NCBI GenBank assembly: GCA_052033915.1
Contig: JBPOJF010000003.1
Location: 58,695-122,694, forward strand
Source of the DNA: Lentisphaerota bacterium
GTDB taxonomy: Bacteria > Verrucomicrobiota > Kiritimatiellia > CAIQIC01 > JAGNIJ01
Direction of reading: 5' to 3'
DNA: 64,000 bases
Position 1 is the stretch's first letter. Each line of letters opens with the position of its first letter. The notes beneath the pieces were generated by a model, which did no database searches, was not told where the DNA came from, and saw only the letters and a program-made list of their open reading frames with translations. The position numbers were made by a program, and so were the translations under genes. Below are positions 307 to 48,620 of the stretch, in pieces.

Positions 307-1674
307 TCAGCGTCCGGTGTTCTCCCTCAGTCCATACTCATTCAACTTCCGGTGGAGTGTCCGGCGGCTGATCCCGAGCTGGGCCGCCGCCTTCGTCCGG
401 TTCTCGCCGTTGTTTTTCAGCGCGTTGATGATGTGCTGCTTTTCCACTTCGTCCAGGGACATGTTCGGGGCCGAAACGGCGCCGGCCTTCGGCTGGACGC
501 CGTCGCGGATCGCGGCGGGGATGTCTCGGACCGTGAGTTTCTCGCCGCGGGACAGCACGATCATGCGCTCGATGATGTTCCGGAGTTGGCGGACATTGCC
601 GGGCCAGGAGTAGGCCAGGAGAATGTCCATGGCATCCGGCGTGATGCTCTCGATCTTCTTGCCGTTGGTTTCCGAAAGCTCCTTGAGAAAGTGCCGGGCG
701 AGCAGCGGGATATCGCCGGCGCGCTCGCGCAGGGGCGGGAGGTGGATGACGACCACGTACAACCGGTAAAAGAGATCCTCCCGGAACTTGCCCTCCGCGA
801 CCATTTTCTTCAAGTCGCGGTTCGTGGCCGCGATCAGGCGCACGTCCACTTCGATCGTTTCCTGGCCGCCGACGCGCTCGAACTTGCGCTCCTCCAGCAC
901 GCGGAGGATCTTTACCTGGATCGCCGGGTCGATCTCCCCGATTTCGTCGAGGAAGATCGTGCCGCCGTCCGCCAGTTCGAACCGCCCGCGGCGGCGTTCC
1001 GTCGCGCCGGTGAACGCGCCTTTCTCGTGGCCGAAGAGTTCGCTTTCCAGCAGGTTCTGGGACAGCGCCGCGCAATGGACCGGGATGAAGGGCCCCTGCG
1101 CCTGCGCGCTCAACCGGTGGATGGCGTGAGCCGCCAGTTCCTTGCCCGTGCCGCTTTCGCCTTCGATCAGGATGTTCGCCCGGCTCGGGCTGGCCTGCCG
1201 GATCGTGTCGAACACTTCCTGCATCGCGGACGACTGGCCGATGATGCGTTCCAGCCCGTACTTCGTGTCCAGTTGCTTGCGCAACTGGCGGTTCTCGGAC
1301 TCCCTGTCGCGCTCGCGGATCGCGCGCTGGACTAGGAGGTCGAGCCGGTCGAGGTTCACAGGCTTCGTCAGGAAATCGTACGCGCCGCGTTTCATGGCCT
1401 CGACGGCGGTCTCGACGGTCCCGTAGGCGGTCAACAGGATGCATACCGGCTGGGAAGAGTGCGCGAGCGCGCGCTGCATGAGCGTGAGCCCGTCGAGGCC
1501 CGGCATCCGGACGTCGCTGAGCATCACGTCCACGGTATTCTCGTCCAGGAGTTCCAGCGCGCGCGGGCCGTTTTCCGCAAGCAGCACATCGTAGTTCCGT
1601 CTCAACGCGCGCGCAAGCCCGTCGCGGGTGTTCTTCTCGTCGTCCACGATCAGGATCAGGGGTTTCTTCTTCAA
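307..1674 (-). CDS. Sigma-54-dependent response regulator, NtrC/AtoC family (REC + AAA+ sigma54 activator + Fis-type HTH)
   Basis: [13 protein letters not shown] receiver; GESGTGKE Walker A; GAFTGA sigma54-contact motif; C-terminal AAQLGISRRTLHRKL HTH. The first codon is TTG and overlaps the kinase stop as TTGA. Confidence 0.9.
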   Translation of the reverse strand: MKKKPLILIVDDEKNTRDGLARALRRNYDVLLAENGPRALELLDENTVDVMLSDVRMPGLDGLTLMQRALAHSSQPVCILLTAYGTVETAVEAMKRGAYDFLTKPVNLDRLDLLVQRAIRERDRESENRQLRKQLDTKYGLERIIGQSSAMQEVFDTIRQASPSRANILIEGESGTGKELAAHAIHRLSAQAQGPFIPVHCAALSQNLLESELFGHEKGAFTGATERRRGRFELADGGTIFLDEIGEIDPAIQVKILRVLEERKFERVGGQETIEVDVRLIAATNRDLKKMVAEGKFREDLFYRLYVVVIHLPPLRERAGDIPLLARHFLKELSETNGKKIESITPDAMDILLAYSWPGNVRQLRNIIERMIVLSRGEKLTVRDIPAAIRDGVQPKAGAVSAPNMSLDEVEKQHIINALKNNGENRTKAAAQLGISRRTLHRKLNEYGLRENTGR

Positions 1675-2867
1675 GGGGACACTCCGGGCTGGGTCTTCCC
1701 CGAGGGGCGGTGCGCCTTCAGCAGGCGGATCCGATGCTCGTCACGGGGCAGGAAGATCGTGAACGTCGTGCCGATGCGCGGCTCGCTGTGGACCTCGATC
1801 TGTCCGCCGTGGTCGCGGACGATCCGTTGAACAATCATCAGCCCGATCCCGGAGCCCTCGGACTTCGTCGTGTGATGCGCCTCGAAAATCTGGCTGAGTT
1901 CCTCGGGCGAGATGCCCGGCCCGGTGTCCTTGAAGGAGATGGAGACGAAGCGATCCGTGCTCGCCATGGAGATTTTCAGCATGCCCCCGTTGGTCATCGC
2001 CTGGATCGCGTTCCGGATGACGTTGAAGAACGCCTGTTTGATCTGGTTCGCGTCCAACTGCACGGAGGGAAGATCCTCCGGGCATTCGACCTCGACCAGC
2101 ACGTCGCGGTCCTGGATCTCGTGCTTGAGGAACGCGAGCGTCTCGCGGAGCACGGCGGCCACGGAGCCGGGCGCGAGGTTGGGCTGCGTGGGTCGGATCG
2201 CGCGCAGGAACTGCGTGAGGATCTGATCCAGCCGCGCCACCTCCTTCTTCGACACGTCCACCAGCTCTTTCAGGGAATCCCTCTTTTCGGGAGGCAGGGT
2301 ATCCATTTCGCGCTCGATCAACTGGAGGTGGATGTTCAGCGAATTGAGCGGATTGCCGATCTCGTGGGCGACTCCGGCGGCGAGCAGCGTCAGCGCGTTG
2401 AGCCGTTCGGACTCGATCGCCTGCGCCTCGTGCTCCCGGTCGCGCGTGATGTCGCGCAGGATGACCACGGCGCCGCTCTCGCCGGGCGTTTCCGGCGCGA
2501 GCGGAACGACATAGAAATCCAGGAACCGGTGCTCGGGATACGTGATTTCGATTTCGCGGCTCACGAGCCGGGACCATTCCTCCTCGTCGAGCTTCAGCAC
2601 TCGATCCCACTCGATTTCGCGCAGATACCGCTGGATCGACTCTCCCGTGACCGCGTCGGAAGAAAACCCCAGCAGTTTCCCCGCCGCGCGGTTCGCGTAC
2701 TTGATCCGGCTCTCGTGATCGAGCACGATCAGCCCTTCGCGCACCGCGTTGAAAATCGTCTCGAGCAATCCCTTCTCGTTGGCGAGATGCAGAAAATGCG
2801 TCTGCAGACTGCCCGGGTCAATGCGATCCAGCCGATCGATGAGCTTGTCCAAAAAGGCCGATTTCAT
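1671..2867 (-). CDS. PAS-domain sensor histidine kinase (NtrB-like), partner of the NtrC-type regulator
   Basis: [11 protein letters not shown]-box and HATPase_c motifs (DTGPGI, GSGIGL); ATG at 2867, the ORF-track start at 2894 is TTG; stop overlaps the downstream regulator start. Confidence 0.85.
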
Positions 2868-3013
2868 TCGGCGGGAATATGCTCCACGCGACAAAAAGTC
2901 TCAATCGAAAAAATGAAGACGGGAAACGGAGGCGCCAGCCTGGAGGCGAATTGCCATTCTTTGACAGGGGCGGTTTCCTGTGTTATTTTCCGCGGCATTG
3001 TTGTCGGGGAGTT

Positions 3014-34366: not shown

Positions 34367-35044
34367 CTACCGCACGCCTTCCTGCTCCACCCATCGCACG
34401 GCCTCGCGGAACACCTGCGCGGCATCTTCGCAGCGCAGCTTCCGTTTGATGTGCGCCCGGTGGACTTCCACGGTTCGGTCGCTCAGCCCGAGTTTGTCCG
34501 CGATCTTCCGAGTGGACAGACCCTGGCCGATTCCCTGGAAGACTTCCATTTCGCGTTCCGTCAACGCCTCGACGCCGAACTCCGGCGCTTCCTTTTTCTC
34601 GCCCTTGATGAAATTCTTCAGCATGCGCGTCGCCGTCTCGCCGCTCACGAAAATCTCGCCGCGCAGGACCGTCCGCAAGGCGTCCACGATCACCTCGTCC
34701 GCCTTTTCCTTCATGACATAGCCTTGCGCGCCGGCGCGCAGGGCCTTCTCGGCGTAGACGGATTCATCGTGCATGGACAGCACGAGATACTTTACGGCGG
34801 GGTACTTCTCGCGCGCGTCGCGGATCAGCTCCAGCCCGCTCTTGTCCTTGAGCGTGATATCCACGATGGCCACGTCGGGCGTTTGCCTCGAGAGCGCTTC
34901 AAAAGCTTCGTCATAGCTAGCCGCCTCGCCGATGATGCTGAATCCCTTCTCGCGGGCGAGGAGGCTGGTCAGCCCATGCCGAACGACGGAATGATCATCC
35001 ACGATCAGGATGGTATAGGCGGATTCTTTGTCTTTTTCTTTCAC
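34367..35044 (-). CDS. LuxR/NarL-family response regulator (REC + LuxR HTH)
   Basis: ILIVDDHSVVRHG receiver; C-terminal LTEREMEVFQGIGQGLSTRKIADKLGLSDRTVEVHRAHIKRKL; GTG start with AGGGAG RBS. Confidence 0.9.
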   Translation of the reverse strand: MKEKDKESAYTILIVDDHSVVRHGLTSLLAREKGFSIIGEAASYDEAFEALSRQTPDVAIVDITLKDKSGLELIRDAREKYPAVKYLVLSMHDESVYAEKALRAGAQGYVMKEKADEVIVDALRTVLRGEIFVSGETATRMLKNFIKGEKKEAPEFGVEALTEREMEVFQGIGQGLSTRKIADKLGLSDRTVEVHRAHIKRKLRCEDAAQVFREAVRWVEQEGVR

Positions 35045-35087
35045 GACTCCCTACTGATTAGCAGAGATTGACCCGGCAGGGAAGCTT

Positions 35088-35155
35088 GAGTCCAAGGTCT
35101 AAAGTCCAATGTCCAAAATCGTCTGCCTGGGACCTTAGACTTTGGACGTTGGACT
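35088..35155. repeat. Repeat family A hairpin element between the sensor kinase and its response regulator
   Basis: GAGTCCAAGGTCTAAAGTCCAATGTCCAAAATCGTCTGCCTGGGACCTTAGACTTTGGACGTTGGACTC. Confidence 0.6.
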
Positions 35156-36802
35156 CATATCAAAGCGGCATGTCACGACCGTTCCGCCTTCCCGGCGCGG
35201 CTGTACGTCCAGAGAACCGTCAATCATTGAAGTCCGGTAGCGCATGATTCGAAGTCCCATCCCCTGGCCGCGTTCAGATTCGGAAGGAATTCCCGCCCCG
35301 TTGCTTTCCACCGTGAGTTGCCCTCCGCGGTCGGCTTCCGCGGCCAGCGTGATCAGGATCCGGCTCGGCTTCGCGTGGCGCACGGCGTTGTTCACCGCTT
35401 CCTGCGCGATGTGGTACAGGTGAACGGCCGTGTTGTTGTCGCGCACACGAGCGTCGCCCCTCGTGTGCAATTCGCACTGGATTCCGAACGTTTCGCGGGT
35501 GTCTGCCGCCAACCGCTGGAGCGCATTGGCCAGCCCCTCGTCTTCCAGTTCAACGGGGGCCAGGCCGCGGGCTAACCTGCGCACTTGGGCGAGGGCGTCT
35601 TTCAGAAGCTCGTTGATGTGTTCTGCGCTGTCGCGCGCCTCGCCGCCGGTTTCCGCAAGATTTGTGGCCAGGGTGCGGCTCAGGAACACGGCGCCGGTGA
35701 GTTTTTGTCCCAGCGAGTCGTGGAGATCCTGTCCGACACGCAGCTTCTCGCGTCCGCTGATTTCAAGGATCTCGCTCTCCAGCCGCATCCGTTCCGCCAT
35801 CTCGCGCTCGATCTGGGCCTTGGCCGCGACGAGGTCCGCAGTTCGGTTCCGGACAAGCTGTTCGATCCTTTGTCCGCGGCGGGCCATGAGCAAAAGCTCG
35901 ATCGTCACGAGCAGGGTAACGGCCAGTCCGATCACCAGGATGAACTCCGGCCGGCGGGCGCCATGCGCAAGCAAGTAGTCCGGCGACGCCGCGCAATTCA
36001 GAATCCATGTTTGGTCGGCCACTGCGATGGGGCCTTGGTAGCTGTACCCGCCGGTGTCCAACGGGGTGTATTCTTCTGTAAGGGATATCCGCAAATTCCG
36101 CGAGGCGGGAGTTGCCGCAACGCGGCTGATCACCTGGTTCGGCCGGAAAATGGCGACCGCGAACCCAACGAGGAAGCCCGGAGGCACCACGATGGATCCT
36201 TGAAGATGGGGATACATAATGGGCGCGAAGACATAGTACTCGGTCGGCGAATTGCGGGTCTTGCCGGCAAGAGACGGACTGCCTGTTTCCCTCATCCTGT
36301 TAATGGCTTGGGAGCAGGACTCCTCCGATGCAAAGTCGAATCCGATCGGAACGCCGAGGGCATTGGCGGGCGTCTGGTAGGTGAGGGCGAAGTACTCGGG
36401 CCTGTTGCCGGCGGGGTTGAACCCGTTCTGACCGTCGAAATCCTGGATGACCATGCTTGTCTGGGCTTCGCCCGGGTCGAGTTGTCTTATCAGTTGCCGC
36501 GTGTTCTCGTCGATGCGTTGGACGAATCCGAAGCCTTGGAGAACCCTTTTTTGGAACGACATACCTTTTCTGACGAACTCCTCGAAATCCTTGCTCGTGA
36601 TCTGGTCGGAAATACTGTGCAGTTGCCGGATCGAATCCAACACGTCCATGAAGAGCTGGATTTCCTGCGCCGCCATGCTTTGGAGATTGCGCGCCTCGAT
36701 CTGAAACTCCTCGCGGGTCGCGTTTTGCTCGAGGACCGTGCGCGTGTGCCACAGAAAGACGCTGATCGCGGTCCCTGCCGCCGCCACGAGGAACGCGAAC
36801 AT
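35135..36802 (-). CDS. Sensor histidine kinase, HisKA_3 (NarX/DegS-type) with large periplasmic domain
   Basis: TM1 MFAFLVAAAGTAISVFLW, ~240-aa periplasmic region, TM2, then ...LHDSLGQKLTG... H-box and HATPase_c (..GQGMGLRIM..). Confidence 0.85.
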   Translation of the reverse strand: MFAFLVAAAGTAISVFLWHTRTVLEQNATREEFQIEARNLQSMAAQEIQLFMDVLDSIRQLHSISDQITSKDFEEFVRKGMSFQKRVLQGFGFVQRIDENTRQLIRQLDPGEAQTSMVIQDFDGQNGFNPAGNRPEYFALTYQTPANALGVPIGFDFASEESCSQAINRMRETGSPSLAGKTRNSPTEYYVFAPIMYPHLQGSIVVPPGFLVGFAVAIFRPNQVISRVAATPASRNLRISLTEEYTPLDTGGYSYQGPIAVADQTWILNCAASPDYLLAHGARRPEFILVIGLAVTLLVTIELLLMARRGQRIEQLVRNRTADLVAAKAQIEREMAERMRLESEILEISGREKLRVGQDLHDSLGQKLTGAVFLSRTLATNLAETGGEARDSAEHINELLKDALAQVRRLARGLAPVELEDEGLANALQRLAADTRETFGIQCELHTRGDARVRDNNTAVHLYHIAQEAVNNAVRHAKPSRILITLAAEADRGGQLTVESNGAGIPSESERGQGMGLRIMRYRTSMIDGSLDVQPRREGGTVVTCRFDMSPTSKV

Positions 36803-36960
36803 CCAGGGCCGGCGAGAGGATCGGTTTCCTTGTGCAGATGCTGTCACGGCAGTGAAGTATACGTGACAGACGCTGTGGGACGAAGGAATTCTAAACATCG
36901 CGTCATCCCGACGCGCCTGACGCCGCATTCCGGGTGCCCGACATTTTTCACATCTACGTA

Positions 36961-36989
36961 TTGACACGTAGTTAGCCTATACGTAATTT
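36961..36989 (+). promoter_or_regulatory. Candidate promoter and palindromes in the AT-rich divergent region upstream of the PEP-CTERM cluster
   Basis: TTGACA (36961-36966), 17-nt spacer, TAATTT; overlapping palindromes CTACGT-ATTGAC-ACGTAG and CGTAATTTACG. Confidence 0.2.
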
Positions 36990-37109
36990 ACGGGAAGCGG
37001 GTGAATTATTTCCCGCTCGGTTGGCGGCCCGAAAAGGTGCGAGGAATGCTTAAAACTTTTCTTGACTGTGTACACGGTTAAGGCAAAAGTGCAACAAGAC
37101 GGAGGCGCT

Positions 37110-37856
37110 ATGAAGAAGATTCTATTGCTGGTTCTCGGCGTGATGCTTGTGGGTTCTATGGCGTTCGGCCAAGCCACTCAAGTTCTCAGTCGTAACGCGG
37201 TGGGGTATGTGAAGATCGACGCAAGATCGAATGGGTTGACATTGGTGAGCATTCCGTTCAATGCGTTCTCGAACACAATTTCAGGGGTGCTTGGCTCGCA
37301 ACTTGTCGGCAATAACAATCCGGCAGGTGCGGATCAAATATTCAAATGGGATAACGCTGTGCAGACGTATGTTCGGTACTACAAGCGCGCAACCCCTGAG
37401 AATGAGTGGCGCAAGGTTGGCGAGACGGTTCCGACGACTGATACATTGAGCCCTGGTGAGAGCTTTTTTATCAAGAATAGCCGGCTAACGAACCAGACTG
37501 TATACTTAATGGGTGAAGTGCCTGACGCGCTTACTGCGCCTACATCGACGGTGTCCGGCGTGCCTGGTCTTCAGATGATTTCGTATTCGTATCCTGTGGA
37601 AACAGCGATAAGCAACCTGACACTCTTTGACACGGCAATCAAGAACAACAACCCGGCGGGTGCGGATCAGATTTTGAAGTGGGATATTCCCGCGCAGACG
37701 TATATTCGCTACTACGTTCGTACAACCGGGTGGCGGAAAGTCGGCGAAACCACAAACACAGCGGATACATTGACGCCAAACGAGGGTTTCTTCTATCTTC
37801 GCCGTGGGACAACCTCGTTTGACTGGACTGAAAAAAAGCCGTACACGTGGCCATAA
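37110..37856 (+). CDS. Secreted protein with internal tandem duplication (two ~110-aa repeats ending in a KPYTWP terminus)
   Basis: GGAGG RBS; signal peptide MKKILLLVLGVMLVGSMAFG; repeats NNNPAGADQIFKWDNAVQTYVRYYKR...GESFFI and NNNPAGADQILKWDIPAQTYIRYYVR...EGFFYL. Confidence 0.7.
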   Translation: MKKILLLVLGVMLVGSMAFGQATQVLSRNAVGYVKIDARSNGLTLVSIPFNAFSNTISGVLGSQLVGNNNPAGADQIFKWDNAVQTYVRYYKRATPENEWRKVGETVPTTDTLSPGESFFIKNSRLTNQTVYLMGEVPDALTAPTSTVSGVPGLQMISYSYPVETAISNLTLFDTAIKNNNPAGADQILKWDIPAQTYIRYYVRTTGWRKVGETTNTADTLTPNEGFFYLRRGTTSFDWTEKKPYTWP

Positions 37857-37903
37857 GTATTTGTAGTATCTAGCGTAATAAACGGTTTGAAAGGAGACCG
37901 CAA

Positions 37904-38545
37904 ATGAAGATTAGGTTACTAGCTACTGTTGCCGCGTTGGTCAGCATGGTTGTTTGCGCAAATGCTCAGGTGCAGGTCGCTTGGTGGAACGAGGAGACGT
38001 CTCCGGGTAGCTTTGTGTACAAAGCAGCGATCGATCCAATTAGTGGACTTGTTGTGATGAGCAGTAGCGCTGATCCGTTGGCTGGCGCATTGTTCCAGTT
38101 GATCGAAGCGGCTGGTGCTGCTCCCTCGGCCCCAACCATTGCGGATTTTGGCATCGGAACAGGTCTCACCGGTGGTGACGCGCTTAATAGTTTCGCTTGG
38201 GCTGGCAAGGATGACTATGGTGCTGGCGTGATCTATGAGTTGGCTGGAGCATTCAGCGGCACAAAGCAACTGTATGTGCGCATTTGGGATCGGCCCACTT
38301 CCGGATCTGGCAATATGCCCAATTCGTTTGACTACGGTGGGGGATTGGTTGGTGCGTATTACTATGACACAGCCGTTGAGAGCTTCACAGGCGTTTCCGG
38401 GAGCCCCTCGGCGGCAGACTTAGACTTCACGCCTCCCACGCAGAATGATTGGACCTTCCTTGCGATACCGGAGCCGACCTCGGTGGCCTTGGGCCTTCTC
38501 GGCTTGGGCGTGATTGTGATCCGTCGTCGCCTGATGCGCAAATAG
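37904..38545 (+). CDS. PEP-CTERM sorting-domain protein (exosortase substrate)
   Basis: AAGGAG RBS; N-terminal signal peptide; C-terminal IPEPTSVALGLLGLGVIVIRRRLMRK (PEP motif + TM + basic tail). Confidence 0.85.
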   Translation: MKIRLLATVAALVSMVVCANAQVQVAWWNEETSPGSFVYKAAIDPISGLVVMSSSADPLAGALFQLIEAAGAAPSAPTIADFGIGTGLTGGDALNSFAWAGKDDYGAGVIYELAGAFSGTKQLYVRIWDRPTSGSGNMPNSFDYGGGLVGAYYYDTAVESFTGVSGSPSAADLDFTPPTQNDWTFLAIPEPTSVALGLLGLGVIVIRRRLMRK

Positions 38546-38567
38546 GTTAGGTCACATCGTTCTCCGC

Positions 38568-38606
38568 GCGGGCGTCCCGGTTTCGGGACGCCCGCGTTGT
38601 TTGTGT
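38568..38606 (+). terminator. Rho-independent terminator after the PEP-CTERM gene
   Basis: Perfect 12-bp stem GCGGGCGTCCCG / CGGGACGCCCGC with GTTT loop, then GTTGTTTGTGT. Confidence 0.8.
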
Positions 38607-38673
38607 AGCGTCGCCCGTCCTCGGGCGAGTTCCGAATTGGTCGTGTCCAGATTCTTTCGCACTTTGGTCTTAG

Positions 38674-39321
38674 GTAGATCATCCATCTGGTCATCCTCCC
38701 TTTCCCCTCTCTAGTATCAACACCGTTGGTTACGTCAAACTTTCCGCCGAGAAGGGCAAGTTGACTCTGGGACGCTTCGATTTCGAGCCCATGAACAAGT
38801 CCGGAGGTCTCACTGTTTCCGACATGTTTGGTGAACAGTTGCCCGTGGGTAGCCGGCTTTATCTTTGGGACAGGTCGGTGAAGATGTTCAAGATCGTCGT
38901 GAAACCTCTCGGTGCGGGTTGGGGCGCGGCAGGGCGTACACGGGTTTCAAGAGGGGAGGGCTTCTGGATTCATGTGCCGGAGTCGGCGGCTTCAAACAGA
39001 TATTCCGTCATCATCACGGGCATGGTTCCCAGCGGCATGACTGCGACGACCACGACGATATCAGGCGTGAATCTGCTCGGCCTGCCGTATCCGGTGGAGA
39101 TGAAGTGGACGAACACGGGTATCGCAAAGACGGCGCCGGTGAATTCGGCCGTGTATCTCTGGAATCAGAGCAATCAAACGTACTTATCCTGTGTGAAGTC
39201 GGCCGGCGCGGGTTGGGATGGGGCCGCAGCGGATGCCATCCTGTATCCCGGACAGGGATTTTGGTTTCGGAATACCGGCACGTTTGAATGGGCGGAAGCG
39301 AAACCATACAGCTGGCCGTAG
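38674..39321 (+). pseudogene. 5'-truncated paralog of the secreted tandem-repeat protein (no signal peptide; homology starts right after a stop codon; only a TTG at 38761 could act as a start)
   Basis: NTVGYVKLSAEKGKLTLGRFDF... aligns with NAVGYVKIDARSNGLTLVSIPF... of the 37110 gene; both end in a ...KPY(T/S)WP terminus; two internal repeats with W(D/N)..Y..GW..G..PG(E/Q)GFW pattern. Confidence 0.5.
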
Positions 39322-39549
39322 TGCAACGGGATTTCAATCGGGGGGTTCATCACACGGTTGTGGGCACGTATCCATGGGGGGCTGAGTAGCTCGGTCGGCC
39401 GGATTCTCGTTTCCTTGGGAAATCCTTCCTACAGGTACGACTGGGCGTTACTGGATTCAGCAAAGGAATATTTCTGTTCTTGGAACGAAGCGCTCAACAA
39501 GAGCGGCCTGATTTTATCCAAACAGGACAGGGAAACAGTTGAGGCCCGC

Positions 39550-42500
39550 TTATCGCTTCAACACTTTCAGCGCGCGTTCGCGCCATTCGCCGGAGAGGTT
39601 GGGGAGGGCTTTCACGGCGAGGTCGAAGCCGTTCTTGGCCTGGCCCTGCGCGATCAGGATCTCGCCTTGTACGAGAGTGTGGTTGGCGTCGTCCGGATCG
39701 ATCGTCGATGCCAGCAGGATATGCTCCATCGCCTTGTCGTACTGCCCAAGGCCCTTGCAGGCCTCGGCGAGCGTGTGGTGGTACTTGTCGTTTGAAGGCT
39801 TCAGATTGACCGCCTCCTGCGCCAGCGTCATGGCTTCGGTGAAGCGGCCCATGCGGACCAAGTCGTAGGCCAGGTTGTTCAGGGCGACATCGTAGAGCGG
39901 ATTGTCTCGATTCTTGAGGCATCGGCGCAAGTAAGTCTCCCTGGCTTCAGGCGTATCCATCAAAGACGCCATGGCCAGGTTCCCGATCATGTTGCCGGGA
40001 TCGCCGGACAGCAACTCTTCGGCCTTCTTGCGCGCTTCGCTGTTCCGTCGCAGTTGCATCGAAAGCCGGATGATGTTCTCGCGCAGGGCTGTGTCCTGCG
40101 GGGTCGTGGCCTCGATCGTCTTCATGTGGCTGAGCGCGGTCGCCAGGTCGCCTTTTTTCTGGGCCACGGACGCCATCAGCTTGAGCATGGGCAGGTTCGC
40201 GGCATCGACGGCCAGGACTTTGCGCGCGAACAACTCCGCCTTGTCGTACTGGTTCAACTGCCATGCCGACATCGCGATAAACGACGCCGAAAGAGTCGTC
40301 TGGTTCGTAGTCGAGAGCAACTGGTTGTAGATGTCCTCCCCGCGCGCCGTATCGCGGTTCTCGAGGTAGAGCAGAGCCAGCAGACTCCGGGCGTTCACGT
40401 TGGCGGCCGACGCCGGGTTCTCCTCCAGAACCTGTATTGCCTTCGCGTAGTCTCTCATGTCCCGCGCCGCGACCGCCAAGCCGATCCGGGCGGAGATGTT
40501 GTCGGGCTGAGTCTGAAGGATGCTGCGGTACTCGGCCTCGGCTTCCGCGAGGTCGCCCTTGCCCTGGGCCAGCAGGGCCGAACTGATCTTCACGGAGAGG
40601 CTGTCCGGGTTGATCATCCGGGCTTGGTTGATCGCGCCGGCTTCCATATCGCGCTGGCCGCCGCGCCGCGCGATGTTGGCCATGTTCAGCGCGAAATGCT
40701 CGGAATAGAGGTATCCGTAGTTCGCAGTCATCATGAACGCGGAACGAAGGAACTTGGGGAACGCCGCCGCTTCTCTCTGGGCCCGCTCCAGAAGGGCCTG
40801 TGCCTTCTGGGTCAGCATCTCCGATCGGACGGTATCGCCGCCGCTGTCGGCTTCCTTGAGGTAGATTGCCCTCTGGTTGAGCAGCGCGCTCGGGTTCTGG
40901 GGCAGGATCTTGAGCGCCAGGTCGTAGGCCTTCTGCGCCAGATCGTCCGACTTCAGCAGTTGCAGGGTCACGCCGAGGTTGTTCGCGCACCGCGAGTAGT
41001 TCTGGCGGACGAACATCTTGAGGGTGTTCGTGCTGTGGTCCGAGATCACCGCTTGGAGCTGATTCGCGAAGGTGTTCTCGAAGTAGTTGACGTTCTTCAG
41101 GTAGACCTCAGATGCCTTCAGGCCGGACAAGTTCTCGACAGGCCGCACCACCAGACCGTTCGGCACGAACTGGTAGCCGATTGACAGGGTCAGGTCGGGA
41201 TTGAACAGCGAACATCCGGCGGGGCCCTTTGCGTTGCCGGACACAATCGCCTTCAGGATGTCCGTTTGCGTGGCGTACGCGGAGGCGTTGATGTTGCATT
41301 CAGGGAATAGGGTGGAGAGGTAACGGCGGTACGATGGCCGACTGATGTCCTGGGCCATGACGATGCGCTCGGGCTGGCCTTCCTCAAAGGCGGCATGAAG
41401 GATCATGTCGTCCATGAAGGAGCGCGAAACGACGAAGACGGGCCGGTTTTCGCACGACCGGACGATGTTCCGGATCAACGCCGTCAGTTCGGGGGTCCGC
41501 GGCGGCACGAAGTGGATGTAGTTCATCACGGCGGTCACGATGGCGATCACGAGGTTCGCGATAGCCGCGGTCTTCCAGACCGGCCTCATCCACAGGGAGG
41601 ATAAGTTCGGGCTCGGGATCACCGCGCGAAACCACCAGTATCCCGCGAGATATCCCATCCACGACGCGATCGCGAGATAGGGGATCAGGAAGGGGTCGTT
41701 CAGACCCATGATGATCGTCGGCGTCATGCCCTTCTCGAGGATCTGCGCGACGCCGAGCACGTTCAGCACAAGCAGGGTGACGATGGTCAGCGCATGCGCG
41801 AGCCGCGTCGAGCCGTAATCCGGCCGCGGCACCAGATACACGTAGATCCACGGCACAAACGCGCAGAGCGCGATCAGAAGACCGCCGACACGCGGAAAGA
41901 TGGATTTGACCTCCAAGTACTGCTTGCGCCACAGATCCAGCAGGACGTTCCAGAACCCCGAGTATTCCTGATATCCCCACTCGGGCAGGCGGGCGACGGC
42001 CCCGACAGGCACGATGTAGAAGAGAAGGCCGCAGAAACCAAGGGCGACGAGCAGCCACAGCCGCTTGGCCGTCAACGCGCGCCGGTACAGCAGGGCGACG
42101 AGCGCCGCGATGACGAAGACAGGGCCGAGAGCGATCATTGTCGCGTATTCGGTGACTCCGAGCCCGTAGAGTAGCGCGGCCCCCATGATCCACCGGACGC
42201 TCGCGTTGGCTCGCGCGTACTGGAGGACCATCCAGAAGCACGACAGCAGGATGAAGAGGTCGAACGTGTGGTTGTCCGGCCGCGTGGAGGCAGTCCACAG
42301 CGGCGCGCAGAACATGACGAACAGCGCGGACGCCAGGATCGCCACGCTCTTTGACGCGCGGGACGCGCCGGCGGGGATCGGCGACGCCTTGTCGTGCACG
42401 ACGAACATCGGCAGTCGGTTCAGCAACTGCACGAACAGGACGATCGAAAGGGATCCGAACACGGCGGAAATGAGATTGAGGTTCATGAGGGTCGGACCGG

Positions 42501-42717: not shown

Positions 42718-42873
42718 GAATGAGGAATGCTATAGCGTATCCGGGGCTGCAAATCAATGACTCGCTGTGGTCACGATCTCGCGCACCTGAGCGCGTCCAC
42801 AGACGGTAGAGCTCATGCGCATCGTCCGCCTTACAGCTTGGCGGGTGGCCCTCTTTCTGGCAATGATTTCCGT

Positions 42874-43770
42874 ATGGGTTCCCGCTGTTTCATCGTGGTC
42901 CTTTGCCTTTCGGTTTTGACGCGTGTTGCCGAAGCACAGCCCCCGCCTCTTCGGGTCGTCAGCCTGGCCCCCAACTTGACGGAACTGATGTTTACGTTGG
43001 GCTTCGGCAGCAATCTGGTGGGCAGGTCATCGGCGTGTGATTACCCGCCCGAGGCGAAGCGGATTCCGATCGTCGGCGGCTTCGGAAGGCCGAATTGGGA
43101 GAAGCTCGAAAGCTTGCGGCCGGACCTTGTCATCGCGACGGATCTCGAGAAGCCGGGGCTTCTGGATCGCCTCAAGGAGAGGGGCGTCGAAACCCTGCTC
43201 CTGCCCTGCGAGAGCTGGGATGAGCTTGTTCAGGCGGGACTCACGATCAGTGAGGCGCTGGGCCGGCGCGCGGCCGGGGAGGAGTTTGTCCGCGGCATGA
43301 CCGCGTGTCGCCGCGCGCTCGAGAGCAGAGTCGCCGCCTTCTACGCCGGAAAGCCCGGACCGCGCGTTTATGTCGAGGTCTGGGGCGATCCGTTGCTGAC
43401 GGCGGGGGCGCAGTCGTTCATCGATGATCTGGTGCGGCTGGCGGGAGGCGCGAATATTGCGGCGGAACTGCGACCGACATATGTCCACGTCAGCGCGGAG
43501 TGGGTGATCCAACAGGACCCGGACGTGATTCTGCTGGCCTATATGTTCCCGAACGCTTCGTCCATCGGAAGTGTTGTGAAGCGGCCGGGCTGGGATAAGA
43601 TGCGGGCGGTCCGAAAAAACGCGATCTGCGCCCATATCCCGCCCGACTTGCTGCTTCGGCCCGGCCCGAGAATCCTGGAGGGGGCGGAGATGTTTGCCGA
43701 GTGGATGATGAGGCGGTCGGAGGTCGCCGGCCGGCAGGAAAACAACGAACAACGAACAACTGACAACTGA
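42874..43770 (+). CDS. btuF: Periplasmic binding protein of a cobalamin/iron-siderophore-type ABC importer (BtuF/TroA-like)
   Basis: Signal peptide MGSRCFIVVLCLSVLTRVAEA; RVVSLAPNLTELMFTLGFGSNLVG...PDLVIAT... class III SBP pattern; C-terminal codons come from an AACAACGAACAACTGACAAC tandem repeat. Confidence 0.75.
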   Translation: MGSRCFIVVLCLSVLTRVAEAQPPPLRVVSLAPNLTELMFTLGFGSNLVGRSSACDYPPEAKRIPIVGGFGRPNWEKLESLRPDLVIATDLEKPGLLDRLKERGVETLLLPCESWDELVQAGLTISEALGRRAAGEEFVRGMTACRRALESRVAAFYAGKPGPRVYVEVWGDPLLTAGAQSFIDDLVRLAGGANIAAELRPTYVHVSAEWVIQQDPDVILLAYMFPNASSIGSVVKRPGWDKMRAVRKNAICAHIPPDLLLRPGPRILEGAEMFAEWMMRRSEVAGRQENNEQRTTDN

Positions 43771-43774
43771 CAAC

Positions 43775-44752
43775 ATGCGCGCCCGGATCACATGGTTTCG
43801 AGTTCTGCTCATCGTCTGCCCGATCCTTGTAGCCGCAAGTGTTTTTCTTGGCGACGGCTGGCGCGATCCGCTGTCGCTGTTTCAACCTGAGCGCGCCGGG
43901 ATTCTGACCGTTCGGCTTTGGCGCGTGGCGTTGGGTGCCCTCGTGGGAGCGTCGCTGTCCGTGGCGGGCTGCGCCCTGCAGGCGGTGCTGCGCAATCCGC
44001 TGGCGGAACCGTACGTGCTGGGCTTGTCCTCCGGCGCGGGGCTTGGAACGGCGCTGTGCATCATTGGCGGAGGGCTGGTGCTGAGTTCCCTGGTGTTGCC
44101 GGCGGCGGGGTTTTTCGGGGCCTTGATCAGCATGCTGATTGTCTATCGGCTGGCCAGGGTGGGGCGGGGGACGGCGCCGCATACGCTGATCCTGGCCGGC
44201 GTGATCTGGGGCGCCGTGTGCGGGAGCGTGCTGATGTTCATCGTGTCGCAGTCGTCCGCCGAAGGGCTCCATGCGATCATGTGGTGGTTCCTGGGGGATC
44301 TGCAGGTGTTCGATGTGCGTCTTGTTCAAGCGACCGCCGTGTTAAGTCTGCTGGCGTTTCTCGGGCTCCTGACGATTTCACGGCCGCTGAACGTCCTCAT
44401 GCTGGGCGAGGAAATGGCGGGGCATGTCGGCCTTGAGCCGGAACGGGTCAAGGGAATGGCCCTGGGCCTGGCGGCGGTGCTGACGGCGGCTTCCGTCTCG
44501 GCCAGCGGCCTGATTTCATTTGTCGGTCTGACCATCCCGCACGCCACGCGGGCGCTGGTGGGGCCGGATCACCGCCGCCTTCTGCCGGCGGCCGCGCTGG
44601 CGGGCGCCGCGTTTCTTGCGCTGGCGGACGGGTTTGGGCGGATGCTGTTGTATCCGACGGAAATCCCCGTCGGCGTGATCACGGCTCTGATCGGCGGGCC
44701 GTTCTTCCTGATGATCCTGCGGACGAAGAGGAAGGAAGTCTGGATTGGATAG
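43775..44752 (+). CDS. btuC: FecCD-family ABC permease (BtuC-like)
   Basis: 9-10 TM FecCD permease; ...GLSSGAGLGTALCII..., ...LGEEMAGHVGLEPERVK..., ...GLTIPHATRALVGPDHRRLLP... Confidence 0.9.
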   Translation: MRARITWFRVLLIVCPILVAASVFLGDGWRDPLSLFQPERAGILTVRLWRVALGALVGASLSVAGCALQAVLRNPLAEPYVLGLSSGAGLGTALCIIGGGLVLSSLVLPAAGFFGALISMLIVYRLARVGRGTAPHTLILAGVIWGAVCGSVLMFIVSQSSAEGLHAIMWWFLGDLQVFDVRLVQATAVLSLLAFLGLLTISRPLNVLMLGEEMAGHVGLEPERVKGMALGLAAVLTAASVSASGLISFVGLTIPHATRALVGPDHRRLLPAAALAGAAFLALADGFGRMLLYPTEIPVGVITALIGGPFFLMILRTKRKEVWIG

Positions 44753-45563
44753 AATCTTGAAACTGGAAACTGGAAGCCTGGATTCGGCGGCGCTCGAACT
44801 GAAAGACATTTCGTCCGGGTATGGAGGGGAGACTGTTCTTCGGACGGTTTCTCTTGCCGTTGCGGCCGGCTCTCTTCTCGGAATCATCGGACCGAACGGG
44901 GCGGGGAAGACCACGTTGCTTCGCGTTCTTGGGGGCGGATTGCCCTTCTGGGCGGGCAGCTTGTCCATTCATGGCAGGGATATCCGCCTGTTCGGGCGTC
45001 GTGAGCTGGCGCAGATCGTCGGGTTCGTCCCGCAGACGCTGGATGTGCCGGTGGCTTTTACCGTGGCGGAGTTCGTGGCTATGGGGCGCACGCCGTACGT
45101 CGCGGGCTGGTCGCGGCTGTCCGAGGCCGATCATGCGGCGGTCCGCAGGGCGATGGCAATGACGGATGTCGAGAGGCTGGAAGGCCGGCTGATTGACGAG
45201 CTGAGCGCGGGCGAGAAACAGCGCGCCGTTGTGGCCATGGCTCTGGCGCAGGAGCCCCGGATTCTTCTGTTGGACGAACCGACCGCGCACCTCGATATCC
45301 ACCATGCCTGGAGCCTGATGGCGCTGATCGTGAAGCTGAACAGGGAGCATGGGGTTACGGTGGTTATGTCGTCCCACGATCTCAATCTGGCCGGGGAATT
45401 CTGTTCGCATCTTCTGTTGATGGATCGCGGCCGGGCCGTGGCGCAGGGAACTCCGCGGGACGTATTGGACGTGGGGAGACTGTCCCGTGTTTACCAGCAT
45501 CCGCTGGAGATCGCAATTCTGCAGGGCGATCAGCGGTTCGTGGCGCCGAAAAGGGCGGAGTAA
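44745..45563 (+). CDS. btuD: ABC ATP-binding protein (BtuD/FecE-like)
   Basis: GPNGAGKTT Walker A, LSAGEKQRAVVAMAL signature, LLLDEPTAHLD Walker B; TTG start overlapping btuC end. Confidence 0.85.
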   Translation: MDRILKLETGSLDSAALELKDISSGYGGETVLRTVSLAVAAGSLLGIIGPNGAGKTTLLRVLGGGLPFWAGSLSIHGRDIRLFGRRELAQIVGFVPQTLDVPVAFTVAEFVAMGRTPYVAGWSRLSEADHAAVRRAMAMTDVERLEGRLIDELSAGEKQRAVVAMALAQEPRILLLDEPTAHLDIHHAWSLMALIVKLNREHGVTVVMSSHDLNLAGEFCSHLLLMDRGRAVAQGTPRDVLDVGRLSRVYQHPLEIAILQGDQRFVAPKRAE

Positions 45564-45623: not shown

Positions 45624-48620
45624 CTACAGCATCGGCATTCCGGGAAGGCTCATGGGGAGGCCCGGCTGCTGGATCGGGGGCACCAAGGCCTTGAACTCAT
45701 GGTTCTCGCGCACGGGATTGAACCGCGGATCTTTCCGGATCACATCGCGTACCGGCTCTCCGCCGAGTTCGATGGCGCGCTTGATCGATTGCACGCACTC
45801 GTTCGGTTTCTGCATGGCCGCCTGGATGGCCGCGAGATCGATCCACACATTGGGGTTCGCGGGCTCGCGGGCCAGGTATTTCTCGAGGGCCGTGGCCAGG
45901 AGATCCATGCGCTTGGCGTCCGCATACATCTTGGCGACGGCCAAGTAGGCGTTCGGCGGGATGTTCGTATCGTTCAGAATGCTCATGGTCAGGCCCTGGA
46001 ACTGGCCTTCGAGGTTGAGCTTGCGGTACAGATCCGCCAGTTCCATGGCCGTGTTCAGTTCGCCCTGTCCCTGGTTGAACTGCGCTTCGAGTTGCGCGCG
46101 CCGGTTGTCCGCTTTCTCGGTCTCGCGGATCTGGTTCAGGAAATCGCCGACCTTGGCGTTGCCGGGATCCTCGCGGAGGAATGCGTCAATCAGCTTGCCG
46201 GCATCGGAGAAACGCCGCTGCTGCATGAGGACGTCCGCCAGCCGGAAATTGGCCTCCGGGCTGAGCGGGTAGAGGTCAATGGCCTGCTGGAAGGCGTACT
46301 CGGCCTCGGGGAACATGCGGCGATAGGCATAGATGCCCGCGATCGCGCCGCGCAGCTTGGAGAACGTTTTCCGGGCCACCACGTCGCGCAGGAACTTGGG
46401 GTTTCCGAGCAGGCGCTGCGTGTACCAGTCCCAGAAATCGCGGTCCTTCTTCACCAGTTCCGGCGACAGGGACGGCAGCGGGTCTGAGTTCAGCTTCATG
46501 ATCAGCCCGTTGGGGGTGAGGTAGGGGTACATCCACGGGATGACGTAACTTTCTTCGACGTAGAATGCGTGCTTGTGCTTGTTGGCCTCGAAGATCATCC
46601 GGCACAGGATGCCGTTGATCATCATGACGCCCTGCACGCCCTGCACGCTGACGCGTCCGTTATCGAACTGCACATCCGCGCCCGGGGGGATGCGCCCGGC
46701 CTGCACGTCCTCCACGTACTTCTGGAACGCGAAATTGCTGTCCTGCTGCGACGGAATCCAGATCGTGTCGCCGTACAGGTCGCGCATGACGCTCATGTAC
46801 GTGTTGTCGGCCAGCGCATTCTGCGTAATGAGGTACACATCCGACCGCACCTTGGCGCAGTAGATCATGTACGTGGGGACGAACCGTCCGGGGTCGGTGC
46901 CCCCGAAGAAAATCGCGTTGGTGTCCATCGGCGGGGGGTAATCCGGCGTGGGATACTGCTTCCAGATCTGTTCGAATTCCTCCGCGGACTTCTTGTAACC
47001 GAGGTCCGATCGAATTCCGTCCACACCCTGAAGCTGCCAGTTGCCGAATTGCCAGCCGAAGTCGTGCTGGTTCTGCTCGGCCCCGCCGACGATCTTGATC
47101 TGCTCCTTGTCGTACGCGTTCTGATACAGGAGCACCGCCGGGAACACGACGACGATGACCAGGGCCAGCGGCTTGATGATGCCGCGCCCGCCGAGAAGCG
47201 TTTCAAGATAGGCGAGCGCAAAGAGGGCTCCGTACCCGAGCCAGATGGCGTACACCGCGTGCGACTGGATGAATTGCACGCGGCCGATGAAGAGCGTCTG
47301 GATATCCAGGTCGGGGTTCTGGAATGTGATGAGAACAATGCTGAGCGAGACGAACGCGACCAGCGAGGTGATCAGCCAGGTCCGGCCCCGGCGGTCGATG
47401 CGTCCGATGAAGAAGAAGGGCACCAGGCCGATGAGGGCAAGGGGAAGCGTGAACTGTTGGCGCAGATCCTTGAAGTACGCGCCCAACTGCGCGACGAACT
47501 TGGCCGAGAAGATGTCCGACGCGGTGATCTTCTCGTATTGCCCGCGCGTGAGGGCGTGCTTGAAGCCTTCCGGCGTGCGGGGGTATCCCCAGTTGATCGG
47601 GGGGTTCTGCTCGGAGGAGATGGGCATGAACCCGTTGAACCCGAGCCCCAGCAGGCACAGACTGCCGATGAGCAGGACGCGCTTCCATTCGGTCATGAGC
47701 TTGCGCTCGATCAGGAACAGGCCCACGGGCGCGAGCAGGAACAACACCGCCATCGTGGTTGTTGTGTTCTTCGAGCGCAGGACTTCCGGCGAGAGGTGGC
47801 CGGTCATGGCGCCGGCTTTCCAGAACAGGTACCCGGAAACGCAGAGGGACAGCGCGGCCATGCAGTCGCGGAAGAGCGAGCGGTCGCGGAACCAGATGGC
47901 GGTCACCAGCGCCGGGCCGACGAAGAGAAGGGTCTGGTGGTTCGTGATGCCGAATCCGAACAGGAACGCGGTGATGTAGAGGATTTTGTCCTCCTTCGGC
48001 CGGCACATCCACATGTACGTCAGGAGGAGCAGAAGCATCTGGAAGAAGGCGTTCAGCGCGTACACCTCGACGATGACCGCCTGGGACCAGAGCACGGGGC
48101 TGAAGGCCAGCAGGAGTCCGCCGGTGACGCCGCCGACCCAGCACAAGAGGCTTTCCGTGGAGATCCCGATCACGTCCGTGGTCTTCTTCACGCTGCGGAG
48201 CATGTCCGTTCCGGAGCGGCTGACCAGGAGAGCGAGCATCCCGCAGGCGAGGGCTCCGAAGAAGGCCGAGGCCAGTCCGACGCTCCACGCCGGATTCGGA
48301 TTCCCGTAGTAGCGAACCCAGCCGAAGATCCATTGGAAGAACCATGTGAACAACGTCCAACTGGGATATCCCGGCGGGTGCGGGACGCCGAGATAGTCCG
48401 AACCCACGGCCAGTTCGCCGCTGTCTTCCAGCGTGACGGTGGGGGCCAGGGTGTAGCAGTACACGCCGAAGGTGATCAGGAAGGTGGTCCAGAACGCCCC
48501 CCAGTCCAGTTTCCGGAAGAAGGCGCCGCTTTGATGGTCGAAGAACGCGGCTTTCTCTTCCGGAGATTGCGAAACGGCTTGGGCACGCACGGTTTTATTC
48601 GGGTTTTTATGATCAGCCAT
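45624..48620 (-). CDS. GT-C-fold membrane glycosyltransferase-like protein (DUF2723/TMEM260-like) with C-terminal TPR array, paralog 2
   Basis: ...YCYTLAPTVTLEDSGELAVGSDYLGVPHPPGYP... N-terminal loop motif typical of DUF2723; ~11 TM helices; C-terminal TPR repeats (...YAFQQAIDLYPLSPEANFRLADVLMQQRRFSDAGKL...). Confidence 0.7.
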   Translation of the reverse strand: MADHKNPNKTVRAQAVSQSPEEKAAFFDHQSGAFFRKLDWGAFWTTFLITFGVYCYTLAPTVTLEDSGELAVGSDYLGVPHPPGYPSWTLFTWFFQWIFGWVRYYGNPNPAWSVGLASAFFGALACGMLALLVSRSGTDMLRSVKKTTDVIGISTESLLCWVGGVTGGLLLAFSPVLWSQAVIVEVYALNAFFQMLLLLLTYMWMCRPKEDKILYITAFLFGFGITNHQTLLFVGPALVTAIWFRDRSLFRDCMAALSLCVSGYLFWKAGAMTGHLSPEVLRSKNTTTTMAVLFLLAPVGLFLIERKLMTEWKRVLLIGSLCLLGLGFNGFMPISSEQNPPINWGYPRTPEGFKHALTRGQYEKITASDIFSAKFVAQLGAYFKDLRQQFTLPLALIGLVPFFFIGRIDRRGRTWLITSLVAFVSLSIVLITFQNPDLDIQTLFIGRVQFIQSHAVYAIWLGYGALFALAYLETLLGGRGIIKPLALVIVVVFPAVLLYQNAYDKEQIKIVGGAEQNQHDFGWQFGNWQLQGVDGIRSDLGYKKSAEEFEQIWKQYPTPDYPPPMDTNAIFFGGTDPGRFVPTYMIYCAKVRSDVYLITQNALADNTYMSVMRDLYGDTIWIPSQQDSNFAFQKYVEDVQAGRIPPGADVQFDNGRVSVQGVQGVMMINGILCRMIFEANKHKHAFYVEESYVIPWMYPYLTPNGLIMKLNSDPLPSLSPELVKKDRDFWDWYTQRLLGNPKFLRDVVARKTFSKLRGAIAGIYAYRRMFPEAEYAFQQAIDLYPLSPEANFRLADVLMQQRRFSDAGKLIDAFLREDPGNAKVGDFLNQIRETEKADNRRAQLEAQFNQGQGELNTAMELADLYRKLNLEGQFQGLTMSILNDTNIPPNAYLAVAKMYADAKRMDLLATALEKYLAREPANPNVWIDLAAIQAAMQKPNECVQSIKRAIELGGEPVRDVIRKDPRFNPVRENHEFKALVPPIQQPGLPMSLPGMPML

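Follow-up and report, generated by a model that had tools for sequence, protein, structure and literature searches.

PEP-CTERM/exosortase (XrtA/EpsH) systems, which come with PrsK, PrsR and PrsT and are covered by the NCBIfam models TIGR02595 and TIGR02917, were reportedly described by Haft et al. in 2006. Here we analyse a locus that resembles them, at positions 34367–39321 of a 64-kb stretch of DNA (hereafter, the window) on contig JBPOJF010000003.1 of a Lentisphaerota bacterium placed in the Kiritimatiellia. Members of the Kiritimatiellia have an important part in breaking down sulfated polysaccharides, and few of their envelope components have been characterised. Using a listing of open reading frames (ORFs) and direct reading of the letters, we found five elements at the locus: a NarL/LuxR-type regulator, a kinase with CHASE and HisKA_3 domains, gene g1, gene g2 with a terminator behind it, and a third reading frame, g3. 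The kinase and regulator genes diverge from a two-gene operon, g1 (protein A) and g2 (protein B), which a strong terminator closes. As in the XrtA systems, a PEP-CTERM cargo gene thus stands beside a two-component system; one point that sets this locus apart is the companion gene that precedes the cargo gene.

A first-pass annotation of this DNA had listed the same elements and read them as a regulated, exosortase-dependent surface- or EPS-associated module undergoing duplication and decay; each element was found where that annotation had placed it. We propose that the locus is probably one copy of a conserved Kiritimatiellia module, and that g3 is a non-functional fragment, belonging to another subfamily of the g1 family, that lies outside the module.

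A KPYTWP protein and its PEP-CTERM partner

Gene neighbours were counted at 55 collected loci, 46 of them distinct and 34–35 informative for neighbours. In 42 of the 46 distinct loci (a count that includes two with a frameshifted partner), a gene for a PEP-CTERM protein of ~185–250 amino acids (mostly 190–225) lies no more than ~70 bp downstream of the g1 homologue, which we call the KPYTWP gene after the C-terminal motif of its product. g1 and g2 therefore make up a strongly conserved, uncharacterised pair across the Kiritimatiellia. The first-pass annotation missed this conservation. It also missed the recurrence of a gene for a TMEM260-like GT-C/TPR protein, which lies within 4 kb downstream, usually directly after the partner gene, at 15 of 34 informative loci. 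The two-component system that it had reported beside the pair does recur: a CHASE-kinase homologue and/or an orthologue of the LuxR-type regulator (56–83% identity) was found within 4 kb at 19 of 35 loci. Counted separately, regulator orthologues in this identity range adjoin the cassette in 12 other loci and CHASE-sensor homologues in 14.

The product of g1 begins with the signal peptide MKKILLLVLGVMLVGSMAFG, followed by Q, and ends in KPYTWP. Its mature N-terminus is conserved as QxxQVLSRNAVGYVK, and family members share the conserved ends QVLSRNAVGYVK... and ...KPYTWP. The g1 protein carries every family feature: signal peptide, VLSRNAVGYVK, two repeats of ~100 amino acids, an MGEVP linker and the C-terminal KPYTWP. 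The first and second halves of the protein align with 51% identity across 79 amino acids (E = 1e-24), and a confident AlphaFold2 model (predicted local distance difference test score 93.5, predicted template-modelling score 0.85) consists of two lobes rich in beta-structure, with about seven strands in each. Structure comparison found no neighbour of this fold in the PDB, and a PDB sequence profile search returned nothing below E = 0.03. Pfam and NCBIfam gave no matches for g1 or g3, and Pfam searches of 38 relatives gave only sub-threshold DUF7015 and chance matches. These profile searches bear out the earlier remark that the repeat domain, with its W(D/N)..Y..GW pattern, could not be placed in a known family.

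A search with g1 returned 85 relatives, all annotated as hypothetical; the few with a named source bear the label Kiritimatiellae/Kiritimatiellia. The relatives form two groups. Subfamily 1, to which g1 belongs, has members of 238–257 amino acids (mostly 244–257) with 43–75% identity to g1, and the larger subfamily 2 has members of roughly 220–235 amino acids. In a profile search covering 1.84 billion representatives, 4,991 cluster representatives matched the KPYTWP family with E ≤ 1e-3; the stricter limit of E ≤ 1e-30 leaves 392. Distant members (26–31% identity) were seen on contigs of metagenome-assembled genomes (MAGs) labelled as Krumholzibacteriota, Deltaproteobacteria, Planctomycetota and Chloroflexota (L052, L054, L055 and L041); L052 and L054 have no PEP-CTERM partner. 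The family domain also occurs inside a multi-domain protein of 3,405 amino acids (P0231).

Within each genome, the internal repeats of subfamily 1 are 73–86% identical to each other in DNA (window 37311–37394/37644–37727; L001 8199–8285/8526–8612; L013 2424–2467/2745–2788). The motif that the two repeats share varies by genome: NNNPAGADQI in the window, GTPGA.DQV in L013 and.FPANADQIM in L002. Likeness within genomes combined with motif differences between them suggests either concerted evolution through gene conversion inside the gene or selection that acts symmetrically on both lobes.

The assignment of g2 as a PEP-CTERM protein held, with 22.9 bits against Pfam PF07589 (cutoff 20.7) and 16.6 against TIGR02595 (cutoff 16). 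Its C-terminus, ...AIPEPTSVALGLLGLGVIVIRRRLMRK, has the architecture of the sorting signal: IPEP, a transmembrane helix and the basic tail RRRLMRK. Direct reading gives the signal peptide MKIRLLATVAALVSMVVCANA, followed by Q, and the structural model has an N-terminal helix at residues 2–18. The body of the protein models as a generic Ig/transthyretin-like beta-sandwich. Among homologues that share only 38–50% identity overall, the PEP-CTERM tail is almost invariant. The partner gene is split by a frameshift in L002 (8759–9417) and has lost its tail in L016 (3236–3835); L016 is a low-coverage MAG (coverage ~1), and the partner defects in both loci may be sequencing errors or further decay.

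No exosortase or exopolysaccharide (EPS) genes were found within the 64-kb window. Its five largest ORFs with multiple transmembrane segments encode an MFS-like transporter (assigned by synteny with L003), a FecCD permease, two TMEM260-like proteins and FtsK; the PlsY, CNNM and Rce1-like protease proteins have fewer such segments, and no exosortase is among these eight. A literature search for Kiritimatiell* with PEP-CTERM or exosortase returned no matching papers.

One contig (CAUZEO010000025.1) carries two whole A–B cassettes, L031 and L032, 98% identical to each other and separated by ~10 kb; both have a TMEM260-like gene in the vicinity. Recent cassette duplication thus does occur in the KPYTWP family. 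The G+C content of the cassette is ~8 points below that of its flanks (mean 0.53/0.54 versus 0.61, for window 37110–38545 and 39 loci). This holds in diverged lineages, syntenic ones included, and could reflect the codon usage of highly expressed genes or repeated lateral exchange.

Truncation, fate and origin of g3

The g3 frame is open from 38674 to 39321, behind a TAG at 38671–38673. It has no ATG, GTG or TTG before TTG 38761 and no hydrophobic N-terminus, so that frame reading agrees with the first-pass statement that signal peptide and ATG are missing and only an internal TTG remains. That annotation also had homology beginning immediately after a stop codon. The stop is there, but homology begins 13 codons later: BLAST against 84 family members always aligns g3 from subject residue ~25–27, just past the signal peptide, and the alignment starts in g3 at residue 14 of the 38674 frame, at VLSRNAVGYVK, the most conserved motif of the family.

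An intact homologue of g3, the full-length protein P0087 (226 amino acids, 83% amino acid identity), is encoded on the metagenome contig L010. Positions 1946–2613 of L010 align without gaps to window 38713–39380 at 90% nucleotide identity. The coding sequence on L010 begins at 1874 behind the ribosome-binding site GGGGAGGGGG, which places the breakpoint in the window at 38712/38713. Because DNA homology starts 24 codons into the L010 gene, g3 lacks a promoter, ribosome-binding site, start codon and signal peptide; the missing first 24 codons are MRAIISIVVFALAGSIALGQCPDI. Alignment of the repeat proteins, the check proposed with the first-pass annotation, thus confirms the 5′ truncation against intact homologues. 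A signal peptide displaced by a frameshift was considered and rejected: no hydrophobic leader is encoded in any of the three frames of 38546–38712, and DNA homology ends at 38713. g3 retains the features of the family, with the signal peptide and a portion of the N-terminal motif as the sole exceptions. Its C-terminal motif is KPYSWP, and its halves are 41% identical over 44 amino acids (E = 8e-5), an internal duplication like that of g1.

We regard g3 as very probably non-functional, in keeping with the earlier description of a truncated and decayed copy. Start codon and signal peptide are gone, the latter a feature of essentially all complete members. A start at TTG 38761 would drop the first beta-strand of the predicted fold (E31–38), the most conserved strand at the N-terminus. 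No sigma-70-like promoter site was found ahead of g3, which lies behind a strong terminator, and its partner gene has been deleted. The ratio of nonsynonymous to synonymous substitution rates (dN/dS) between g3 and its L010 homologue is 0.38 at dS 0.22, two to four times the 0.09–0.19 of eight preselected intact family pairs, which were compared at higher divergence (dS 0.9–2.1). Among 131 positions that are conserved in outgroups, 11 changes are private to g3, 6 are private to P0087 and 17 are shared by the two. The shared changes suggest that the whole partner-less lineage evolves fast, and the pattern as a whole is suggestive, but not conclusive, of relaxed constraint on g3.

Several observations weigh against this reading and would favour a functional g3, a leaderless protein of 186 amino acids made from TTG 38761, cytoplasmic or otherwise in a new role. 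All 202 codons are open, with no stop or frameshift and no gap relative to P0087, which means that the truncation is recent or that some constraint persists; dN/dS is below 1 and KPYSWP is kept. The purine-rich stretch GAGAAGGG precedes TTG 38761, and the intact homologue has TTC at the codon where g3 has this TTG. Gene callers annotate the 186-amino-acid protein, with calls for this ORF in both NCBI and Logan. Divergence confounds the dN/dS comparison: L031/L032, the sole intact pair of similarly low divergence, reaches 0.58 at dS 0.025, so part of the gap may reflect short divergence time, and the excess of 11 over 6 private changes is not significant. Set against the missing promoter, signal peptide, N-terminal strand and partner, a functional g3 is improbable in our judgement. 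As a pseudogene, g3 would be a case of routine decay that matters mainly since public databases list an ordinary protein of 186 amino acids.

The first-pass annotation saw in g3 a local duplication that then decayed. The decay half of this stands; the duplication half does not, and with it goes the idea of a module undergoing duplication. An origin of g3 through tandem duplication in place, of g1 alone or of g1–g2, could be argued from its position 168 bp past the g2 stop codon, on the same strand, from its homology to g1 and from the L031/L032 cassettes. Yet g3 is only 31% identical to g1 (225 amino acids, E = 1e-22) versus 83% to P0087. BLAST against all relatives groups it with subfamily 2, a different and more widespread subfamily in which it shares 60% identity with five further proteins. 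No g3 stands at the corresponding position in L001, L002 or L013, the three syntenic relatives closest to the window; these share PlsY, the regulator, the kinase, orthologues of g1 and g2 and the convergent GT-C/TPR gene, and their g1 orthologues are 75%, 62% and 56% identical to g1, respectively.

The g3 fragment also carries its own downstream spacer and a stub of a partner gene, collinear with L010. Downstream of P0087 there is no whole partner gene on L010, only its last ~40 codons, followed by a terminator; the stub ends in ...IPEPGSMAVGLLRLGVILIRRRLARK, and L010 2581–2700 aligns to g2 residues 174–213. A GTG-initiated ORF of 49 codons at L010 2554–2703 runs into the bare PEP-CTERM tail (…DKYPWWLITIPEPGSMAVGLLRLGVILIRRRLARK); of the partner gene, the sorting signal alone is left. 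The first 33 nucleotides of the stub are present at window 39348–39380. Because the stub is common to both sequences, the partner was deleted before they diverged, and the window copy appears to have been cut again later at both ends. Searching the window with partner proteins by tblastn revealed no second partner-gene remnant past 39380, and tblastn of g1, g2, g3 and partner proteins turned up no additional paralogues in the window. With g3 absent from three relatives and nearer to P0087 than to g1, it looks like a piece of another cassette in a spacer that bears a repetitive extragenic palindromic (REP) unit. We therefore consider tandem duplication very improbable and take g3 to be, on present sequence comparisons, a fragment of a different paralogous cassette.

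A metagenomic assembly chimera, with reads of a related organism spliced in, is hardly credible: the source is a MAG and the closest g3 homologue comes from another sample and genomic context, but syntenic flanks bound the spacer (38598–39549) on both sides, so that a chimera would require two junctions, the upstream REP unit sits where it does in L013, and a second assembly is 100% identical across 9 kb, although the two agreeing assemblies may come from the same reads.

Regulatory genes, spacer and neighbours

Table 1 Features of the locus and its surroundings, in window coordinates
Feature	Position	Strand	Evidence
Response regulator	34367..35044	-	Pfam Response_reg 7.9e-25, GerE 3.2e-17
Sensor histidine kinase	35135..36802	-	Pfam CHASE 1.1e-16, HisKA_3 8.5e-13, HATPase_c 6.9e-15
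Palindrome CTACGTATTGACACGTAG	36954..36971	.	Invariant in window, L001, L002 and L013
Conserved leader/promoter block 5′ of g1	37050..37109	+	Near-invariant in four orthologous loci
g1, two-repeat exported protein, 248 aa	37110..37856	+	ORF, relatives, model
g2, PEP-CTERM protein, 213 aa	37904..38545	+	Pfam PEP-CTERM and TIGR02595
Intrinsic terminator of the g1–g2 operon	38566..38597	+	Hairpin and T-rich tail
REP-like palindromic unit GTAGCGTCGCCCGTCCTCGGGCGAG	38605..38629	+	~90% matches to L013 REP sites
g3, apparent 5′-truncated subfamily-2 fragment	38713..39321	+	90% nucleotide identity to L010 1946–2554
Spacer apparently co-transferred with g3	39322..39380	+	Collinear with L010 2555–2613
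Short fragment encoding ...YFCSWNEALNKSGL...	39445..39510	+	tblastn, weak evidence
TMEM260-like GT-C and TPR protein, 1055 aa	39550..42717	-	Pfam TMEM260-like 2.6e-8, many TPR families

The positions of all features are given in Table 1. As first annotated, a HisKA_3 kinase and a LuxR-type regulator lie on the opposite strand, and all four domains involved score above their Pfam cutoffs; the ~240-amino-acid periplasmic sensor of the kinase is a CHASE domain. A HisKA_3 and HATPase_c kinase together with a regulator of REC and GerE/LuxR helix-turn-helix domains makes this a two-component system of the NarL/FixJ type. The kinase ORF extends to 36967, with a probable start at ATG 36802; this start yields the protein of 555 amino acids that was also called in an independent assembly (L009).

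The divergent spacer between the kinase gene and g1 spans 307 bp and has a G+C content of 0.50–0.53, versus 0.62 for the window. Within it, the palindrome CTACGTATTGACACGTAG contains TTGACA and is unchanged across four loci although the surrounding DNA has diverged. Read by eye, it resembles a NarL-type 7-2-7 site, and the response regulator is a candidate to bind there. The 60-nucleotide leader block ahead of g1 is conserved and includes a GGAGG ribosome-binding site at 37101–37105. An Rfam search of 36700–39700 gave no match to the leader, its sole match being a sub-threshold one on the terminator.

The strong terminator reported behind g2 proved to have a stem of 14 pairs, 12 of them G–C, with perfect arms of 13 nucleotides and a T-rich tail; the hairpin is kept in L001 and L013. 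Directly after it stands the REP-like unit, present as a single copy in the window, at the position where a REP array starts in L013. The sequence from 38595 to 39555 measures 961 bp, versus 87 bp at the same place in L001. In the equivalent spacer of L013 (3550–4520), an IS200/RAYT-like ORF of 175 amino acids, its family assigned by eye from the motif MPDHVHLF rather than by profile search, lies amid at least five REP units (GTAGAGTCGCsCGTCCmCGsGCGA), and the window unit is a ~90% match to three sites of this array. An array and a RAYT-like ORF at the same site in L013 suggest that the spacer is a REP/RAYT landing pad, and it is plausibly a hot spot for illegitimate recombination. Direct or inverted repeats bounding the g3 segment, as marks of a mobile element, were sought and nothing convincing was found.

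A further fragment in the spacer (39445–39510) gave a pairwise tblastn match of 54.5% identity over 22 amino acids (E = 4.7e-5), which is weak evidence. It encodes one degenerate unit, YFCSWNEALNKSGL, of the type ...FGSWDEALRAAGL... that is repeated in a 553-amino-acid protein on L010 (3–1661, minus strand), upstream of the intact g3 homologue. Such a fragment would fit a view of the spacer as a mosaic of debris.

Beyond the convergent GT-C/TPR gene, a second TMEM260-like GT-C/TPR gene (997 amino acids) lies at window 45624–48620 on the minus strand, 3 kb from the first. The two bracket an ABC transporter (42757–45563, plus strand) with a Peripla_BP_2 binding protein, a FecCD permease and an ATPase, an arrangement also present in L001 and L002. 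Near the start of the window (307–2894, minus strand), there is a sigma-54-dependent NtrC-type response regulator with a PAS-HisKA kinase.

Working model and comparison with known systems

In the model that we propose, the CHASE kinase would sense a periplasmic signal, and the regulator would bind the palindrome at 36954–36971 and so control the g1–g2 operon. Proteins A and B would both cross the inner membrane through Sec. An exosortase encoded elsewhere in the genome would process B, which would then be displayed on the cell surface; A, which has no anchor of its own, would work with B, probably through binding. This joint action is proposed because the two genes co-occur almost obligately. 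The adjacent TMEM260-like GT-C/TPR enzyme may glycosylate A or B, with the linker T-A-P-T-(S/T)-T as a candidate for the modified site. Outside the operon, g3 would be a segment cut at its 5′ end 24 codons into the gene and at its 3′ end inside the stub of an already-deleted partner, which came to rest in the REP-bearing spacer, prone to rearrangement, that separates the terminator of the operon from the convergent GT-C/TPR gene.

Some points count against the model. The A–B interaction, the binding of the palindrome and the glycosylation are read from gene neighbourhood, and in about half of the informative loci no kinase/regulator or GT-C gene lies within 4 kb. Exosortase processing of g2 is an assumption, as the search of the 64-kb window revealed no exosortase.

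A bolder version, which we consider doubtful, is that the KPYTWP protein, with a new fold, and its PEP-CTERM partner make up an undescribed two-protein surface system of the Kiritimatiellia that a dedicated CHASE-sensor two-component system switches on, and of which one member may be O-glycosylated in the periplasm by the GT-C/TPR enzyme. If true, A would be the first known case of a companion on which an exosortase cargo depends, and the glycosylation would parallel, in a bacterium, the TPR-guided O-mannosylation that beta-sandwich domains receive in eukaryotes. The family is large (~5,000 representatives), has neither a curated model nor a structural neighbour, and is nearly always paired with a PEP-CTERM protein. 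The biology of exosortase cargo is poorly understood, and a regulated two-gene module offers something well defined to study by genetics, localisation and glycoproteomics.

The REP/RAYT elements, in which an IS200-like Y1 transposase accompanies the repetitive palindromes, share with this locus a palindromic unit right after the terminator, and L013 adds the ORF with the IS200-like motif and related units. The window differs in having one unit and no transposase gene; a REP element may nonetheless have brought g3 to this site.

Eukaryotic TMEM260 and TMTC proteins are GT-C/TPR protein O-mannosyltransferases that work on the non-cytoplasmic face of the membrane, where their targets are folded beta-sandwich domains. 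The adjacent gene resembles them in having an N-terminal TMEM260-like GT-C domain (PF11028) followed by TPR repeats. The likeness, at 34 bits for the adjacent copy, is one of sequence, from which neither activity nor substrate is deduced. These genomes carry TMEM260-like genes in multiple copies, of which the window has two.

For protein A, the nearest Pfam entry is DUF7015 (PF22839), a domain of ~100 amino acids, about the length of a KPYTWP repeat, which a few subfamily-1 members match weakly and in part, around W..Y.. in one repeat. The displayed scores are 14–19 bits, where the gathering score is 35.2; E ≤ 0.01 is reached by just 4 of 85 members, and g1 and g3 gave no match to this model. 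Protein B, like the NCBIfam PEP-CTERM cargo families (XDP1 NF041927, PEP_CTERM_TLD_A, FxDxF and others), is small and secreted with a PEP-CTERM tail. Unlike their members, it matches through the tail only (12–18 bits versus cutoffs of 50–125), and its body seems to form a separate family.

Like the cargo of the XrtA systems, g2 encodes a signal peptide, PEP motif, transmembrane helix and basic tail, and a TPR protein as well as a two-component system adjoins the cargo gene. The differences lie in these neighbours. The kinase and regulator are of the CHASE-HisKA_3 and NarL/LuxR types, not the sigma-54-dependent PrsK/PrsR; that identity was considered and rejected on the differing domain types, the best NCBIfam matches being MctS/MctR and NarL, below cutoff. 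As for the TPR protein, it is a fusion with a TMEM260-like GT-C domain and scores 74 bits as PrsT against a cutoff of 312. No exosortase or EPS genes turned up in the window, and the cargo has an obligate companion without a PEP-CTERM tail. On these likenesses and differences, we would class the locus as an operon for an exosortase cargo and its obligate companion, a protein so far uncharacterised.

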